Shown piece by piece: positions 9,785 to 39,435 of a stretch of 64,000 nucleotides of DNA (position 1 is its first letter; the number at the start of each line of letters is the position of its first letter). The notes under the pieces were generated by a model that saw only the letters and a program-made list of their open reading frames with translations, had not been told where the DNA came from and did no database searches. A program made the position numbers and the translations under genes. This stretch comes from Blastococcus sp. (GTDB lineage Bacteria; Actinomycetota; Actinomycetes; Mycobacteriales; Geodermatophilaceae): positions 7,780 to 71,779 of the forward strand of contig JBELIQ010000013.1 of NCBI GenBank assembly GCA_042090795.1, written 5' to 3'.

Positions 9785-9881
9785 GAAGGACCCCGTCGCC
9801 CCCCACCCCTCGCACGCTCGGGGCGGGCCCCTGCGACGGCGCCGCCCTCGCAGGCTCGGGGCGAGCCTCCGGACGGGGCCG
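9785..9881 (+). repeat. Nested palindromic repeat element: one full copy (9785-9844) plus a partial tandem copy (9845-9881)
   Basis: GAAGGA-CCCCGTCG...CCCC-TCGCACGCTC-GGGG...CGACGGCG-CCG, followed by TCGCAGGCTC-GGGG...GGACGGGG-CCG. Confidence 0.85.
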
Positions 9882-9902
9882 CCGGAGCTGGGAGAGAGGG
9901 AC

Positions 9903-12635: not shown

Positions 12636-12732
12636 GCCGGCTCGGGTCCGACGACGACCCGGGTGTGCCTGCCCCGGACAGCACCGCAGCCGCCGACGGG
12701 GACGGTCGGCGGCTGCAGGTGACGTGCTGGAA

Positions 12733-12796
12733 CGGCCCCCCTCCGGAGCCCGGGCCGAGAGTGCGAGGGCTGGGGAGGAGGGGTGCCTCCGTCAGA
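12733..12796 (-). repeat. Nested palindromic repeat element at the whiB2 stop codon
   Basis: TCTGACGGAGGCA-CCCCTCC...TCGCACTCTC...GGAGGGG-GGCCG. Confidence 0.8.
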
Positions 12797-13172
12797 CGGC
12801 GCGGCGGCGGAGCCGGCGGCGCTCCCGCTCGGACAGCCCGCCCCAGATGCCGAAGCGCTCGTCGTTGGAGAGCGCGTACTCGAGGCACTCGGCCTTGACC
12901 TCGCAGCCGGTGCAGATCTTCTTCGCCTCCCGGGTGGAGCCGCCCTTCTCGGGGAAGAACGCCTCCGGGTCCGTCTCGGCACACAGGGCGCGCTCCTGCC
13001 AGGACTGCCCCTCGGCCTCCAGGCCGATGCCCAGCAGCCCGCTGATCCCGGTCCCCGTGGGAGCGCCCAGGCCCTGTCCGGCGCCCAGGCCCTGTCCGGC
13101 GCCCGCGCCGAACCGGTCGGTCGTCCGGTCGCTGCCGCTGACGTAATCGCTCAACCACGAGACCTCGGCCAT
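12792..13172 (-). CDS. whiB: WhiB2-type Fe-S transcription regulator
   Basis: WQERALCAETDPEAFFPEKGGSTREAKKIC..CEVKAECLEYAL...GIWGGLSERERR. Confidence 0.97.
   Translation of the reverse strand: MAEVSWLSDYVSGSDRTTDRFGAGAGQGLGAGQGLGAPTGTGISGLLGIGLEAEGQSWQERALCAETDPEAFFPEKGGSTREAKKICTGCEVKAECLEYALSNDERFGIWGGLSERERRRLRRRAV
13063..13104 (-). repeat. 18-bp tandem repeat in the whiB N-terminus (GAGQGL)
   Basis: GCGCCCAGGCCCTGTCCG x2 plus a 6-bp partial copy. Confidence 0.9.
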
Positions 13173-13260
13173 GACGGTGCGTCCCCTCTCGCTCTCGTCC
13201 CGGTGCGCGGCTGTCGAGACGTTCCCGAACCGCTCAGCACCTGATGACGTCCACGGAATT

Positions 13261-13368
13261 ACACGCGTGTCGTTGCCCGGCCGTCAACTTTGCCCGGTGT
13301 AAGCGACACGCCACACGTGCCCCACCCGTCACGCGCCGTTCGTCACATCTCGTCTGCTACCTCGACAC
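13261..13368. promoter_or_regulatory. whiB/cofD divergent control region with ACACGCGTGT palindrome and GACAC boxes
   Basis: Perfect 10-bp palindrome 13261-13270; GTGTC 13267, GACAC 13305 and 13364 (WhiA-type motif). Confidence 0.5.
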
Positions 13369-13413
13369 GCCCGTGGAACAGTCGACAACTGCCTATCGGG
13401 CACGATGTGTTTC

Positions 13414-14364
13414 GTGCAGATCGTGGTGCTGGCTGGTGGGACCGGAGGGGCTCGATTCCTGAGGGGGGTGCGGGCGGCCGCGCCCGACGCGGAGATCACC
13501 GCGGTGGTGAACACCGGGGACGACGTGACCCTGCACGGGCTGCGCATCTGCCCCGACCTGGACACCGTCGTCTACACCCTGGGCGGCGGCATCGACGAGG
13601 ACCGCGGGTGGGGCCGGGCGGGCGAGAGCTGGACGGTCAAGGAGGAGCTCGCCGCCTACGGCGCGGACCCCGACTGGTTCGGCCTCGGCGACCGCGACCT
13701 GGCCACCCACCTCATCCGCACCCGGATGCTCGACGCCGGCTATCCCCTGTCGGCCGTGACCGCTGCGCTCGCCGACCGGTGGCAGCCCGGCGTCACCGTG
13801 CTGCCGATGAGCGACCAGCGGGTCGAGACCCACGTCGTCGTGACCGATCCGGAGAACGGCCGCCCCCGCGCCATCCACTTCCAGGAGTGGTGGGTGCGGC
13901 ACCGCGCCGAGCTGGCGGCGTCGGCCTTCGTGCAGGTCGGTGTCGACGCCGCGCGCCCCGGCCCGGGGGTGACCGAGGCCTTCGCCGGCGCCGACGCCGT
14001 CCTGTTCGCGCCGTCGAACCCGGTCGTGTCGGTCGGGACGATCCTCGGCGTCCCCGGCATGCGCGAGGCGCTGCTGGCCACGCCGGGGCGCATCGCGGGC
14101 GTCTCGCCGATCGTCGGCGGGGCCGTCGTGCGCGGGATGGCCGACCGCTGCCTGCCGGTGCTGGACATCGAGGTCAGCGCCGAAGGGGTGGGCCGGCACT
14201 ACGGCGCGCGGTCCGACGGCGGGCTGCTCGACGCCTGGCTGGTGGCGGCCGACGACCCCGCCGACGTCCCCGGCGTCGACGTCCGGCGGGTCCCGCTGCT
14301 GATGTCCTCCCCCGAGGCGACGACGGCACTGGCCCGCGCCGCCCTGGACGCCGCCGGTGTCTGA
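13414..14364 (+). CDS. cofD: 2-phospho-L-lactate/PEP transferase (F420 biosynthesis)
   Basis: [42 protein letters not shown]; GTG start 13414. Confidence 0.96.
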
Positions 14365-15487
14365 CGAAGGACCCCGTCCTCCTCACGCCTCGCACGCTCG
14401 CCGCGAGCCTCTGGACGGGGCCGTTCCATCGGGGGTCACGGTGCTGCCCGTCGTGGGGCTGCCGGAGTTCGCGCCGGGCGACGACCTCGCCGCCGCGCTG
14501 GCCGCCCGCGCTCCCTGGCTCGCCGACGGCGACGTCGTCGTCGTCACCTCCAAGGTGGTCTCCAAGGTCGAGGGCGCCCTGGTCCGCGTGGAGCCCGGCG
14601 CCGACCGCGAGGCCGCCCGGCAGGCCGCGATCGACGGGCAGACCGTGCGGGTCGTGGCCCGCCGCGGACCGCTGAAGATCGTGCAGACGCCGCACGGCTG
14701 GGTCGTGGCCGCCGCGGGCATCGACGCGTCCAACGTCGACCAGGGCTCGCTGGTCCTGCTCCCGGAGGACTCCGATGCCTCGGCACGCGCGCTGCGAGCC
14801 CGGCTCGCGGACCTGCTCGGCGTCGACGTCGCCGTGGTGGTCAGCGACACGTTCGGCCGCACCTGGCGGGAGGGGCTGACCGACGTCGCCGTCGGATCGG
14901 CCGGGATCACGGCGCTCGTGGACCACCGGGGTGCCGTCGACGCCCACGGCAACCGGCTGGAGACGACGCGGATCGCCCTGGTGGACGAGCTGGCCTCGGC
15001 CGCCGACCTGGTCAAGGGCAAGCTCGCCGGCGTGCCGGTCGCGGTGATCCGCGGTCTCCCGCCGGCCCGGCCCGAGCCGGACGAGGGCACCCGCCCGCTG
15101 GTCCGGCTGCCCTCGGACGACCTGTTCCCCTACGGCTCCCGGGACGTCGTGGGCTCCCGCTCGCCCGCTGCCGACCTGGTGCCGCGGGCCGGCGAGCTCG
15201 ACGCGGTGGCGGCGGCCCTCCGCACCGCCAGCGCGGCGCTGCCGGAGTTCCCGGTCGTGCTGCGCTTCGGCGGGGAGGGCGACGGGGTCGTCGACGTCCA
15301 CCTGACCGACGCGGTGACCACCACCACCGCGGTCAACCTCGGGGCGCTCGTCGGTGCCGCGATCGTGCAGCTCCACGCGGAGGGCTGGTCCACCCGCTGG
15401 GAGCCGGCCGCCACGGCGGGGGGCACCTCACTCGTCGGGAGGCTGTGGCTGGGCGTCCTGCCCACCGGTAGCGGCTCCGGTCGGTAA
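14357..15487 (+). CDS. cofE: Coenzyme F420-0:L-glutamate ligase with a short, degenerate C-terminal domain
   Basis: [51 protein letters not shown]. Confidence 0.93.
14359..14423 (+). repeat. Nested palindromic repeat element at the cofD stop / cofE N-terminus
   Basis: GTCTGACGAAGGA-CCCCGTCC...TCGCACGCTC...GGACGGGG-CCG. Confidence 0.88.
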
Positions 15488-36291: not shown

Positions 36292-37047
36292 TCAGAAGGG
36301 CAGCCGGCGGAACACCGCGCGCGGCGTGTGGCGCAGGCCGCTCATCACCCAGCGCATCGCGCCGGGGACCCACACGGTGTGCCGGCCCTTGCGGACGCCG
36401 GTGACGATCGCCTCGGCCACGGCCTCCGGCGTCGTGGACAGCGGCGCCTCGGCCATGCCCTCGGTCATCTTCGACCGCACGAAACCGGGCCGGACGACCA
36501 GCACCGACACCCCGGTGCCCACGAGGGAGTCGGCCAGGCCCGAGTAGAACGCGTCCACACCGGCCTTGGTGGAGCCGTAGACGTAGTTGGACCGCCGGGC
36601 CCGCTCCCCGGCCACGGACGACAGCACGACGATCGCCCCGTGGCCCTGGCTGCGCATCCGGTTGGCCAGGGCCGTGCCGACGACCACCGGGGCCACGTAG
36701 TTCACCTGCCCGAGCGCACCGGCCGCACCGGGGTCGGCGGCGAGCTGCTCCTGGTCGCCGAGCTGACCGAAGGCGACCACCGCGACGTCGATGTCCGCAC
36801 CGGCCGCGGCGGCGGCGACCATGCGCTCGGGCGAACCCGGGTCGTCGGCGTCGAAGTCGACGACGTCGACGTCGGCACCGGCGGCTCGGAGCTCGTCGGC
36901 CACGGCGGCCCGGCGCGGGGAGTTCCGCGCCGCGACGACGACGCGCAGCGGCCGCTCGGCCAGGTAGCGGCGGGCGGTGGCCACGGCGATGTCGGAGGTT
37001 CCGCCGACGAGCAGCAGCGAGCTCGGGGATCCGAGGGCGTCGATCAC
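36292..37047 (-). CDS. dprE2: Decaprenylphospho-2-keto-erythropentose reductase
   Basis: IDALGSPSSLLLVGGTSDI, AFGQLGD, RRSNYVYGSTKAG; directly downstream of dprE1. Confidence 0.93.
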   Translation of the reverse strand: MIDALGSPSSLLLVGGTSDIAVATARRYLAERPLRVVVAARNSPRRAAVADELRAAGADVDVVDFDADDPGSPERMVAAAAAGADIDVAVVAFGQLGDQEQLAADPGAAGALGQVNYVAPVVVGTALANRMRSQGHGAIVVLSSVAGERARRSNYVYGSTKAGVDAFYSGLADSLVGTGVSVLVVRPGFVRSKMTEGMAEAPLSTTPEAVAEAIVTGVRKGRHTVWVPGAMRWVMSGLRHTPRAVFRRLPF

Positions 37048-38456
37048 AGCGAGAGCCTCCTGGCCAGGTCGGACGTGAACACACCGTCGGGGTCCACCCG
37101 CTCGCGGACCGCGCGGAACTCCTCGAGCCGCGGGTACATCCGCGCGAAGGTCTCCGGGCGGACCCGGGAGTCCTTGGCCAGGTAGGTCCGTCCCTCGGCG
37201 GCGACGACGACCTCGTCCAGGGAGTCGAGCAGACCGGCCAGCCCCTTCATCACGGGGATGTCCAGCGCCAGCGTCCACCCCGGCGACGGGTAGGACAGCA
37301 TGCCGGGGTTGCCGGGGCCGAAGCGCTTGAGCACGGCGAGGAAGGACGCCGTCCCGAACGAGCTGAGCCGGTCCAGCACCTCGCGCATGGCCTCCTCCTG
37401 CCCGAAGGGCACGGTGACCTGGTACTGCACGAAGCCGCGCGGGCCGTAGATGCGGTTCCAGCCGCCCACGGCGTCGAGCGGGTGGAAGAAGGTCGGGATG
37501 CTCTGCAGCTGGTCGCGCTTCTTCTTGGGCGACTTGCGGTACCAGAGCTCGTTGAACGCCGCGACCGTGGCCAGGTTCAGCAGCCCGGGCGGGAAGACGT
37601 CGGGGACCGACACCTTGATCGAGCCGTGGTAGGCCAGCGGGTCGGCCTTCCGCTTCTCCGGCAGCTCGTCGAGCGTGGCGAAGCGGCCGCGGGTGACCAC
37701 CGAGCGGCCCATGCGCCGCCCCTTGGCCAGCGTGTCGATCCAGGCGACCGAGTACTCGTAGAGGTGGTCGGTCTCGGCCAGCAGCGTCATGAGCGAGTCG
37801 AGGTCGGGCGTGCGGTCGGTGTCGACCAGGCAGCGCGAGGACTCGATCCGCTTCAGCTGCACCTGCGCGCGCAGGATCACCCCGGTCAGGCCCATGCCGC
37901 CGGCGGTGGCCCAGAAGAGGTCCGGGTCCTGCTCGGGGCTGACCCGCCGCACCTCGCCGTCGGCGGTGAGCAGGTCCAGCCACCGGACGTGCTGGGCGAA
38001 GCTGCCCGCGACGTGGTGGTTCTTGCCGTGGATGTCCGCCCCGATGGCCCCCCCGACGGTCACCAGGCGGGTGCCCGGCGTCACGGGCACGAAGAAGCCC
38101 TGCGGGACGAAGCGGTTCATCAGCTCGTCCAGCGAGATGCCGGCCTCGACGTCGACCAGACCGGTCTCCGGGTCGAAGGACAGCACGCGGGCGGCCGCGG
38201 TCATGTCCAGCACGTGGCCACCGGCGTTCTGCGCCGCGTCGCCGTAGCTGCGGGCCAGACCGCGGGCCACCACACCACGACCGCCGGCGGCGGCGAGCAC
38301 CGCACGCACCTCGGCGTCGTCGTGGACGGGGGTGAGCACCGCCGGCGTCGGCGCGGTGCGGCCCCAGCCGTGGAGAGCCACGGCTTCGCCGGCCCCGTCC
38401 AGGGGCCCGCGCCGAGCCTGCGAGGCGTGGGGGGGACGGGGTGTTTCGTCAGACAT
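37044..38456 (-). CDS. dprE1: Decaprenylphosphoryl-ribose 2'-oxidase (FAD)
   Basis: GWGRTAP, RGLARSYGDAAQN, PVTPGTR.VTVGGAIGADIHGKNHH, SFLAVLKRFG, YLAKDSR. Confidence 0.95.
   Translation of the reverse strand: MSDETPRPPHASQARRGPLDGAGEAVALHGWGRTAPTPAVLTPVHDDAEVRAVLAAAGGRGVVARGLARSYGDAAQNAGGHVLDMTAAARVLSFDPETGLVDVEAGISLDELMNRFVPQGFFVPVTPGTRLVTVGGAIGADIHGKNHHVAGSFAQHVRWLDLLTADGEVRRVSPEQDPDLFWATAGGMGLTGVILRAQVQLKRIESSRCLVDTDRTPDLDSLMTLLAETDHLYEYSVAWIDTLAKGRRMGRSVVTRGRFATLDELPEKRKADPLAYHGSIKVSVPDVFPPGLLNLATVAAFNELWYRKSPKKKRDQLQSIPTFFHPLDAVGGWNRIYGPRGFVQYQVTVPFGQEEAMREVLDRLSSFGTASFLAVLKRFGPGNPGMLSYPSPGWTLALDIPVMKGLAGLLDSLDEVVVAAEGRTYLAKDSRVRPETFARMYPRLEEFRAVRERVDPDGVFTSDLARRLSL
38390..38453 (-). 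repeat. Nested palindromic repeat element at the ubiA stop / dprE1 N-terminus
   Basis: GTCTGACGAAACA-CCCCGTCC...CGCC-TCGCAGGCTC-GGCG...GGACGGGG-CCG. Confidence 0.88.
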
Positions 38457-39435
38457 CGAAGACTCCCAACGCCATGGTGCCCACCCAGAGCACACCGAGG
38501 CAGAGCAGCACGCGGTCGTGCAGGACGATCTCCTCGGGTGCGCCGGCGGAGCCCTTGTCCACGTCCACCGCGTACCTGAGGATCGCCATGACGAACGGGG
38601 CGATGGAGATGGTCGACCACGGGATGCCCTCCTGCGTCTCCCCCATCTCGAAGGCCCACAGGCTGTAGGCGGTGACCGCCACGCCGGCCGAGAGGCTCCA
38701 CACGAACCGCAGGTAGCTCGCCGAGTACTCCTTCAGCGTCTTGCGCGTCGCGGCGGCGTCGCCGACCAGGACCAGCTCGGAGTAGCGCTTGCCGGCGACC
38801 ATGAACAGCGAGCCGAAGGCGGCGACGAGCAGGAACCACTGCGACAGCACCAGCCCGGCCGCCACGCCCCCGGCGATGCCGCGGAGCAGGAAGCCCGAGG
38901 CGACGACGGCGAGGTCGATGACCGGCTGGTTCTTGAGGAACACGCAGTAGGCCAGCTGGATGACCACGTAGCTGGTCAGCACCCACGCCAGCTCGGGACG
39001 GGTGAGCAGCACGGCGGCCACCAGCGCGACGGTGAACAGCACGGCGGCCATGACCAGGGCGAGCCAGCGCGGCACGATGCCGGCGGCGATCGGCCGGAAC
39101 CGCTTGCGCGGGTGCCGACGGTCCTCCTCGACGTCGATCGTGTCGTTGACCAGGTAGACGGCGGACGCGGCGAGGCAGAAGAGCACGAACGCGGCGGCGG
39201 TCGGCCCCATGACGTCGGGGTTGAAGATCTCCCCCGCGGCCAGCGGGGCGGCCAGGACCAGCACGTTCTTGACCCACTGGCGGGGTCGCAGCGCCCGCAC
39301 CAGGCCCCAGGCGAAGCTCCCCCGGAAGCCGGGGAGGCGGGGGGCCGGCTCCGGAGCGGACGAGGTCTCGTCGGGAACCGGCGCCGTCGTGGCCTCCGGC
39401 GCCAGTGCGGGGCTCGACTGGGGATGCACGGTCAC
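38449..39435 (-). CDS. ubiA: Decaprenyl-phosphate phosphoribosyltransferase (DPPR synthase)
   Basis: RPRQWVKNVLV, YLVND..D...DR.HPRKR.RPIAAG, GKRY.E, GAPEE. Confidence 0.94.
   Translation of the reverse strand: MTVHPQSSPALAPEATTAPVPDETSSAPEPAPRLPGFRGSFAWGLVRALRPRQWVKNVLVLAAPLAAGEIFNPDVMGPTAAAFVLFCLAASAVYLVNDTIDVEEDRRHPRKRFRPIAAGIVPRWLALVMAAVLFTVALVAAVLLTRPELAWVLTSYVVIQLAYCVFLKNQPVIDLAVVASGFLLRGIAGGVAAGLVLSQWFLLVAAFGSLFMVAGKRYSELVLVGDAAATRKTLKEYSASYLRFVWSLSAGVAVTAYSLWAFEMGETQEGIPWSTISIAPFVMAILRYAVDVDKGSAGAPEEIVLHDRVLLCLGVLWVGTMALGVFDV

Follow-up and report, generated by a model that had tools for sequence, protein, structure and literature searches.

A stop-adjacent hairpin repeat in overlapped gene junctions of Blastococcus is probably translated into the N-termini of CofE, DprE1 and several other enzymes

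A 64,000-nt stretch of the genome of Blastococcus sp. (contig JBELIQ010000013.1, positions 7,780 to 71,779 of the forward strand, called the window below) carries one and the same GC-rich hairpin repeat between cofD and cofE and between a prenyltransferase-like gene and dprE1. From sequence comparisons across the genus we favor the reading that a repeat lying next to a stop codon, in a junction where the downstream start overlaps the upstream stop, is translated as the N-terminal peptide of the downstream enzyme. Translation of the repeat into CofE, DprE1 and several other enzymes is probable, and we infer that the long proteins would be made in the studied strain by re-initiation at the overlapped starts. 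At the cofE and dprE1 junctions and at that of a short-chain dehydrogenase (SDR) gene, the repeat is under reading-frame constraint across Blastococcus.

The repeat copies were collected by iterated nhmmer searches over the whole of the studied genome (G000; 4.6 Mb, 73.4% GC), which gave a family of 199 members, and the cofD-cofE junction was compared in 24 genomes of the same genus and five genomes of other families. Gene calls on G000 were home-made and based on codon usage, and the start sites in them are unverified. The strength of a Shine-Dalgarno (SD) match is given as kcal/mol of pairing with the anti-SD.

The repeat at the cofE, dprE1 and SDR junctions

The two copies in question (14355-14423 on the plus strand and 38390-38458 on the minus strand) are 87% identical over 69 nt and are the best-matching members of the family, as expected from the initial annotation, which had taken them for one repeat. 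The features of the first junction are listed here.

13405-14364, plus strand: cofD, a 2-phospho-L-lactate transferase-like open reading frame (ORF) from the ORF list, with its TGA at 14362-14364
14357-14359, plus strand: GTG, the ancestral coupled cofE start according to comparison with relatives, overlapping the cofD stop by 8 nt as GTGTCTGA (14357-14364)
14365-14440, plus strand: the repeat in its long form, defined by the nhmmer family, covariation and the tail
14441-14443, plus strand: an alternative in-frame cofE GTG (V29) directly after the repeat, with an SD-like GGGGGU 5 nt upstream
14357-15487, plus strand: cofE, encoding F420-0:gamma-glutamyl ligase (Pfam PF01996), long form of 376 aa

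The putative cofD gene was named from its position and from a 'cofD_c' anchor conserved in all relatives. The repeat that follows its stop is built from a 5' CGAAGGA, an outer stem of CCCCGTCC (14372-14379) and GGACGGGG (14413-14420), an inner stem with the apical loop CTCGCAcGCTCG, and the tail GTTCCATCGGGGGTCACG (14423-14440). It folds with a minimum free energy of -35.2 kcal/mol when flanks are included and reads from 14357 as a 26-residue peptide. In the long form of CofE the F420_ligase domain covers residues 35-233 (E=1.1e-50), and no stop lies between the repeat and the domain. At the second junction the arrangement is alike.

38449-38456, minus strand: ATGTCTGA, in which the dprE1 ATG (38456-38454) overlaps the TGA (38451-38449) of the prenyltransferase-like gene; the same in repeat-free orthologues
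38392-38448, minus strand: the repeat core, 57 nt, which encodes DETPRPPHASQARRGPLDGA if read from ATG 38456 (minimum free energy -33.9 kcal/mol with flanks)
38379-38381, minus strand: an alternative in-frame dprE1 GTG (V26) just past the repeat, identified from the sequence, giving MALHGWGRTAP
37044-38456, minus strand: dprE1-like FAD oxidoreductase gene (Pfam FAD_binding_4 and ALO), long form of 470 aa

The ORF read from ATG 38456 begins MSDETPRPPHASQARRGPLDGA and runs stop-free into FAD_binding_4 (from residue 40) and ALO; after the methionine its predicted N-terminal peptide is SDETPRPPHASQAR, and the frame remains open as far back as GTG 38495. An SD sequence at proper spacing, GGGAG at 38467-38463 (-6.8 kcal/mol), precedes ATG 38456, and the NCBI record for dprE1 is exactly the 470-aa long form starting at this ATG. 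Hence the 8-nt overlap and the open, in-phase frame into the conserved domain that had been noted for both genes are borne out by the sequence.

The overlaps are older than the repeat. Repeat-free cofE genes (L003, L006, L008, L010, L016 and L017) begin with an RTG that overlaps the stop of cofD, as GTGTCTGA-gcccggc in L006, as GTGTCTAG in L003, L008 and L010, and as GTGA in L016 and L017. The outgroups have GTGGCTGA (L026, L027), GTGCCTGA (L028), GTGTCTGA (L029) or ATGA (L030), and the ancestral junction type is found in four of the five other families. In most repeat-free cofE genes the overlapping RTG is the only in-frame start ahead of the conserved VxPVxGLPEF strand. The dprE1 orthologues L034-L046 likewise have an RTGnCTGA start followed by MSDQV/MSETT-LLNGWGRT, with ATGTCTGA kept in the repeat-free L034-L038 and GTGGCTGA in more distant species. 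As repeat-free relatives keep the overlap at both genes, RTGTCTGA is the ancestral coupled junction and not, as had been proposed, a part of the repeat; other repeat copies also differ at this position. The CofE and DprE1 peptides are near-identical because the repeat has a fixed register after the TGA and both junctions have the 8-nt overlap; five copies in G000 yield the same peptide. At three loci where filled and empty sites could be compared the insertion point is directly 3' of the TGA, with no clear target duplication; by eye CGAA is possibly duplicated around the dprE1 copy, and nothing similar is seen at the cofE or SDR copies.

The SDR gene lies outside the window, after pheT, and gives the cleanest fusion.

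C38:11203-12072 of G000, minus strand: repeat-fused SDR gene

It starts with GTGGCTGA, continues through the repeat to GQALLSG-VALVTGASSGIG, and has no other in-frame start. In 19 repeat-free orthologues an RTG overlapping the pheT stop stands 4-7 codons ahead of VALVTGASSGIG, the junction commonly being GTGsCTGA followed by MPELSG. In six repeat-bearing orthologues, from six Blastococcus species, the overlapped start precedes the Rossmann motif by 23, 27, 29, 29, 30 and 30 codons, all in frame, the variants including an internal duplication of 9 nt as well as a member of the other stem subfamily. No other start precedes the Rossmann motif in G000, G004, G001 and G020, whereas G022 and G007 have GTG as the motif's first codon.

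Within G000, RTGnnTGA precedes five repeat copies, those at dprE1, cofE, the SDR gene, a 4HBT thioesterase gene and a TRAM-methyltransferase gene. Each of these frames is open and continues in phase into the closely following gene, with peptides of the form (M)[SA][DE][ER]GPRPP.... A CbiX gene is fused to the repeat in another frame, via TGATG.

Reading frame and start codons

Repeat-bearing cofD-cofE junctions were found in seven genomes, and every one keeps the relevant frame. Forward copies occur in G000, G006, G007, G017 and G018; the differences among them are an indel of 3 nt and a change of 4 nt, the latter where the overlap type shifts from 4 nt to 8 nt. In G009 (L007, C12:374138-375229) the repeat is in reverse orientation, still in frame, and gives the CofE N-terminus MVDRRPPPEARPERARAEGEGVLLLPVPGLPEF with no alternative start. 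In G004 (L002, C1:893241-894368) it lies two codons ahead of the cofD stop, where reading through it lengthens the C-terminal end of CofD by 21 codons, VEGPPGPPPLASSRRDPAGRP, and is followed by an intact ATGCCTGA junction. The next in-frame ATG, GTG or TTG of cofE is 19 codons (G006) or 32 codons (G009) into the conserved domain. As no start precedes the domain in these two genomes, CofE must there carry the repeat-encoded peptide.

A non-coding copy in the window served as the control locus.

12728-12797, minus strand: non-coding repeat copy right after the TGA of a whiB-like gene and before a conserved terminator-like hairpin

Among 13 repeat-bearing species the distance from the whiB stop to the terminator stem is 73, 75, 76, 77, 78, 81 or 82 nt (the G000 spacer was counted by hand). 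These lengths fall in all three residue classes, and hence there is no frame constraint at this site. At the coding junctions the frame was kept in 12 of about 13 length-changing events, for which a hand calculation gives p ~2e-5 if changes were neutral (one third for each class), and a conservative count of seven frame-keeping events in eight gives p ~0.003, also by hand.

The whiB 3' region (12650-12800 of the window, minus strand; orthologues L130-L155) consists of the repeat and then the terminator-like hairpin CAGCCGCCGAC..GTCGGCGGCTG plus TGGTTCTGTTC. At this single orthologous site the outer stem of the repeat varies from species to species by compensatory changes (CCCCTCC/GGAGGGG, CCCCGTCC/GGACGGGG, CCCTTCGCC/GCGAAGGG and CCCCCTGC/GCAGGGGG), and some species retain just a mini-hairpin and the tail.

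Alternative readings and a possible route

The most serious alternative is that in G000 the repeat is an untranslated or incidentally translated intercistronic spacer, with CofE made from GTG 14441, DprE1 made from GTG 38381 and the open frame a by-product of the 73% GC content. We consider this doubtful, but a number of observations speak for it and against translation of the repeat. An in-frame GTG is kept right after the repeat in both cofE and dprE1 of G000. That of cofE has a far better SD sequence (-9.8 kcal/mol, GGGGGU at 5 nt) than the ancestral start GTG 14357 (-3.0 kcal/mol, no SD), and it sits 3 residues ahead of Pfam profile position 1, outside the domain; the initial annotation, by which the next cofE start lacks an obvious SD and cuts into the first conserved segment, needs correcting here. 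The NCBI record holds a 348-aa CofE starting at 14441, and the codon-usage coding score of cofE begins past the repeat, at 14435. All three frames of the repeat consensus lack stops because the repeat is GC-rich, so that openness of the frame by itself counts for little. The number of independent frame-keeping events (about 8-13) is an estimate, several of the repeat-bearing orthologues sharing ancestry. A hairpin of about -30 kcal/mol starting 16 nt past the start codon could hinder initiation there, and REPs (repetitive extragenic palindromic sequences) at predicted N-termini may be extragenic, with translation starting downstream (Di Nocera et al. 2013, PMC3733652).

Two dprE1 orthologues also belong on this side of the argument. 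That of G004 has an in-frame repeat of the other stem subfamily with GTG-ATG right behind it. That of G010 (L032, C4:581542-582936) has 6 C instead of 7 in the C-run of the repeat, so that ATGTCTGA opens a 25-codon ORF, MSDETPRPPTPRRLGAGPWTGPAKP, whose TGA overlaps the dprE1 GTG (GTGAAC, giving MNLHGWGRT). This 1-nt deletion breaks the fusion; dprE1 must there begin at the downstream GTG, and such a GTG is therefore able to act as a start. The G010 state hinges on a single nucleotide of a homopolymer in a draft assembly and could be an assembly error.

Against the spacer explanation stand first the relatives. The codon matching GTG 14441 is GTC, ATC or CTG in 18 of the 29 examined; it is therefore not a conserved start, and the ancestral cofE start is upstream. 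Downstream starts are absent from the repeat-bearing cofE of G006 and G009 and from four of the six repeat-bearing SDR genes, and length variants keep the frame at the coding junctions and not at the non-coding control. In G000 the upstream starts are intact and coupled, and re-initiation at them would yield the long form anyway, whereas GTG 38381 has only a distant, poorly spaced SD match. Both forms of CofE may be made in G000, in which case GTG 14357 would rely on coupling. The claim that the repeat is translated as N-terminal peptides is well supported comparatively, by the frame constraint and by the start-less cofE and SDR orthologues; in G000 itself the downstream starts could also serve.

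A quite different reading, to which we give little credence, is that the repeat is a stop-anchored functional RNA and not merely selfish. In this role it would modulate termination, re-initiation or the processing of mRNA at about 150 gene ends; copies within ORFs would be attenuators setting the stoichiometry of coupled genes, and fusion at either terminus and the relay ORF would be interchangeable states. Its basis is the stop-to-hairpin distance of about 7 nt, the loop CTCGCAnGCTCG and the retention of the repeat, with compensatory stems, at orthologous Blastococcus sites.

Very unlikely is a relay in the manner of mycobacterial interspersed repetitive units (MIRUs), in which a short ORF within the repeat, opening at the upstream stop and closing at the downstream start, hands ribosomes on and is no part of the enzyme. 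This is exactly the layout of the G010 dprE1 junction, with its 25-codon ORF and GTGA end, and for MIRUs a coupling at -4 nt between the internal ORF and the target gene has been described (PMC12548453). However, in the cofE and dprE1 copies of G000 the frame runs from the upstream start into the enzyme domain without a stop, so that these read as fusions, and the G010 case is subject to the reservation given above. Chance or low-complexity likeness of the two N-termini, both Pro/Arg/Gly-rich as GC-rich DNA would give, is refuted by the 87% identity of the sites and by their membership in a 199-copy family sharing structure and covariation.

At the cofE and dprE1 junctions the translationally coupled overlap of start and stop (RTGnCTGA) existed already when the repeat came in, and insertion directly 3' of the TGA placed the repeat within codon 3 of the downstream gene. 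At such overlapped junctions copies persist only if they are free of stops and keep the frame. If the repeat is indeed translated into the enzymes, ribosomes ending on the upstream gene would re-initiate at the overlapped start and read through the hairpin, giving an enzyme with some 20 extra N-terminal residues rich in Pro, Gly and Arg. Lineages can leave this state by acquiring a start downstream of the repeat, by losing the hairpin in frame or by turning the repeat into a relay ORF. If the long forms are made, ribosomes would routinely re-initiate 16 nt before a very stable hairpin, a test case for models of termination-reinitiation.

The peptide itself seems to be tolerated as a passenger and not to serve as a functional module. 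It shifts with compensatory stem changes (PRPP...LDGA versus PPAP...LQGA), and in-frame deletions trim it in relatives. These properties do not favor the earlier proposal that the repeat donates peptide modules. That proposal had also drawn on the essentiality of DprE1 in mycobacteria. As DprE1-like genes gave no match at E<=1e-30, the threshold for presence, in nine of the 24 same-genus genomes and are thus not universal in Blastococcus, the argument from mycobacterial essentiality is weakened.

Within one genus the loci form a natural series of a structured repeat landing in an overlapped start/stop junction. The outcomes seen are N-terminal fusion, C-terminal fusion of the upstream gene, reverse insertion, in-frame hairpin decay, a new downstream start and a MIRU-like relay ORF. 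Annotation is affected as well, the public record being inconsistent at the two window junctions, with a short CofE but a long DprE1.

The repeat family and known systems

The repeat is an undescribed family of GC-rich nested-hairpin elements. The best nhmmer E-values were 7.7e-20; Rfam gave no match at the gathering score across the window and none at E<=1 for 12650-14500, and no description of the family was found in the literature on Geodermatophilaceae repeats. Members are 58-80 nt long. The core of 56-58 nt has the consensus aGAAGGACCCCcTcCCCCCCACCcCTCGCAcGCTCGcGGCGGGCCCCTGgAcGGGG, and a 16-nt extra tail with the consensus GTTCCAGCACGTCACC is present in 30 of the 199 copies. Terminal inverted repeats with a target-site duplication would mark a miniature inverted-repeat transposable element (MITE); the ends of the long form, GGAAGGACCCC and GGGGCCGTTCC, are imperfectly inverted. 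Two nested stems make up the fold of the core, an outer stem pairing positions 8-15 with 49-56 and an inner stem pairing 19-25 with 36-42. RNAalifold run on the nhmmer alignment gave the inner stem only, and outer-stem pairing was counted by hand. Stem positions are paired in 88-99% of copies, except for one inner pair at only 76%. Compensatory exchange is seen at outer pair 12-52 (GC in 79 copies, CG in 75), at outer pair 14-50 (CG 87, GC 59, TA 12) and at the inner pair of model positions 24-37 (CG 70, GC 45), and the conserved apical loop of 10-12 nt, CTCGCAnGCTCG, is nearly invariant. An unpaired conserved AAGGA at the 5' end of the repeat looks SD-like. Most copies are single; a few loci have about 1.5-2 in tandem (e.g., C23:42495/42580), one of which is in the window.

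9785-9888, plus strand: about 1.5 tandem repeat copies, found by self-comparison of the window and nhmmer

As far as found, the family is restricted to Geodermatophilaceae. Scanning one genome per species for its exact pattern detected it in Blastococcus, Geodermatophilus, Modestobacter, Goekera, actinobacterial metagenome-assembled genomes and one UNVERIFIED_ORG record labelled Bacillus. The window itself is assigned to Blastococcus by the names of its protein clusters.

Placement next to stop codons was assessed with the codon-usage gene calls, which put a co-oriented gene upstream of 153 of the 199 copies. The upstream stop ends within -9 to +5 nt of model position 1 in 123 copies, 71 of them at one exact position. 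A stop triplet occupies the same place in 37 of the 76 other copies, several of these closing long ORFs that the gene caller had missed, and no stop triplet is present in the remaining 39. The stop-adjacent share is thus at least 62%, or about 80% with missed stop triplets (TGA, TAG, TAA) counted. The adjoining stops are TGA, TAG and TAA in 82, 10 and 8% of cases versus 87, 11 and 2% in the genome, and a C precedes the stop in 79% versus 61% genome-wide, a mild enrichment only. A strict sequence target for insertion was rejected, given the near-average stop usage and the 39 copies without a stop. Stop adjacency may reflect an insertion target or selection.

The parallel drawn by the initial annotation with Rickettsia palindromic elements (RPEs) is apt. 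RPEs are dispersed palindromic repeats found in frame in unrelated genes, to which they add a conserved peptide while the gene stays intact (PMC10969869). The Blastococcus repeat resembles them by behavior, being palindromic, multi-copy, and in frame and stop-free between start and conserved domain. However, RPEs are about 150 bp long, belong to Rickettsia and are mostly internal to ORFs, whereas the present repeat is 58-80 nt long, belongs to Geodermatophilaceae and has some 60-80% of its copies in extragenic, stop-adjacent positions. It enters ORFs mainly through start/stop overlaps (N-terminally) or at the extreme C-terminus.

MIRUs are actinobacterial repeats of operon junctions that overlap the flanking stop and start and preserve coupling (PMC12548453). 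Their relay-ORF layout is seen only in the G010 dprE1 copy. MIRUs carry their own short ORF, whereas the G000 cofE and dprE1 copies fuse without a stop to the downstream ORF; MIRUs form tandem arrays of variable number, whereas the copies under study are single; and the defining feature of the Blastococcus repeat is a nested hairpin whose stems covary.

REPs tagged by GTAG or CGTC are short palindromes mostly downstream of genes, with termini that often supply or abut a stop and with some members within ORFs (Di Nocera et al. 2013, PMC3733652). The Blastococcus repeat likewise abuts stops and lies partly in ORFs, but REPs are 20-40 nt long with a GTAG or CGTC head, whereas the Blastococcus repeat is longer, has no terminal GTAG (CGTC occurs only within one stem variant), and combines two stems with a conserved apical loop of 10-12 nt. 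The G000 genome gave no match to the REP-associated tyrosine (RAYT/Y1) transposase family PF01797, although control genomes did, and a REPtron origin was therefore rejected. The kind of event is thus already known from RPEs, REPs in ORFs and MIRUs; the repeat family is a new example of it and no new kind of system.

About 10% of the copies lie inside predicted ORFs of G000. Besides those treated above, there are apparent C-terminal (C26:176172, C6:115464, C27:158132), N-terminal (C33:54975, C44:197969, C40:343) and internal (C46:73348, C13:126684) cases. Examples of repeat-containing proteins are a 1203-aa protein ending in GEGPPAPHHSLARGGTLQGA directly before its stop and a protein that by eye is ThiG-like, starting MEKDPRSPHHSQARGGPLHEG.

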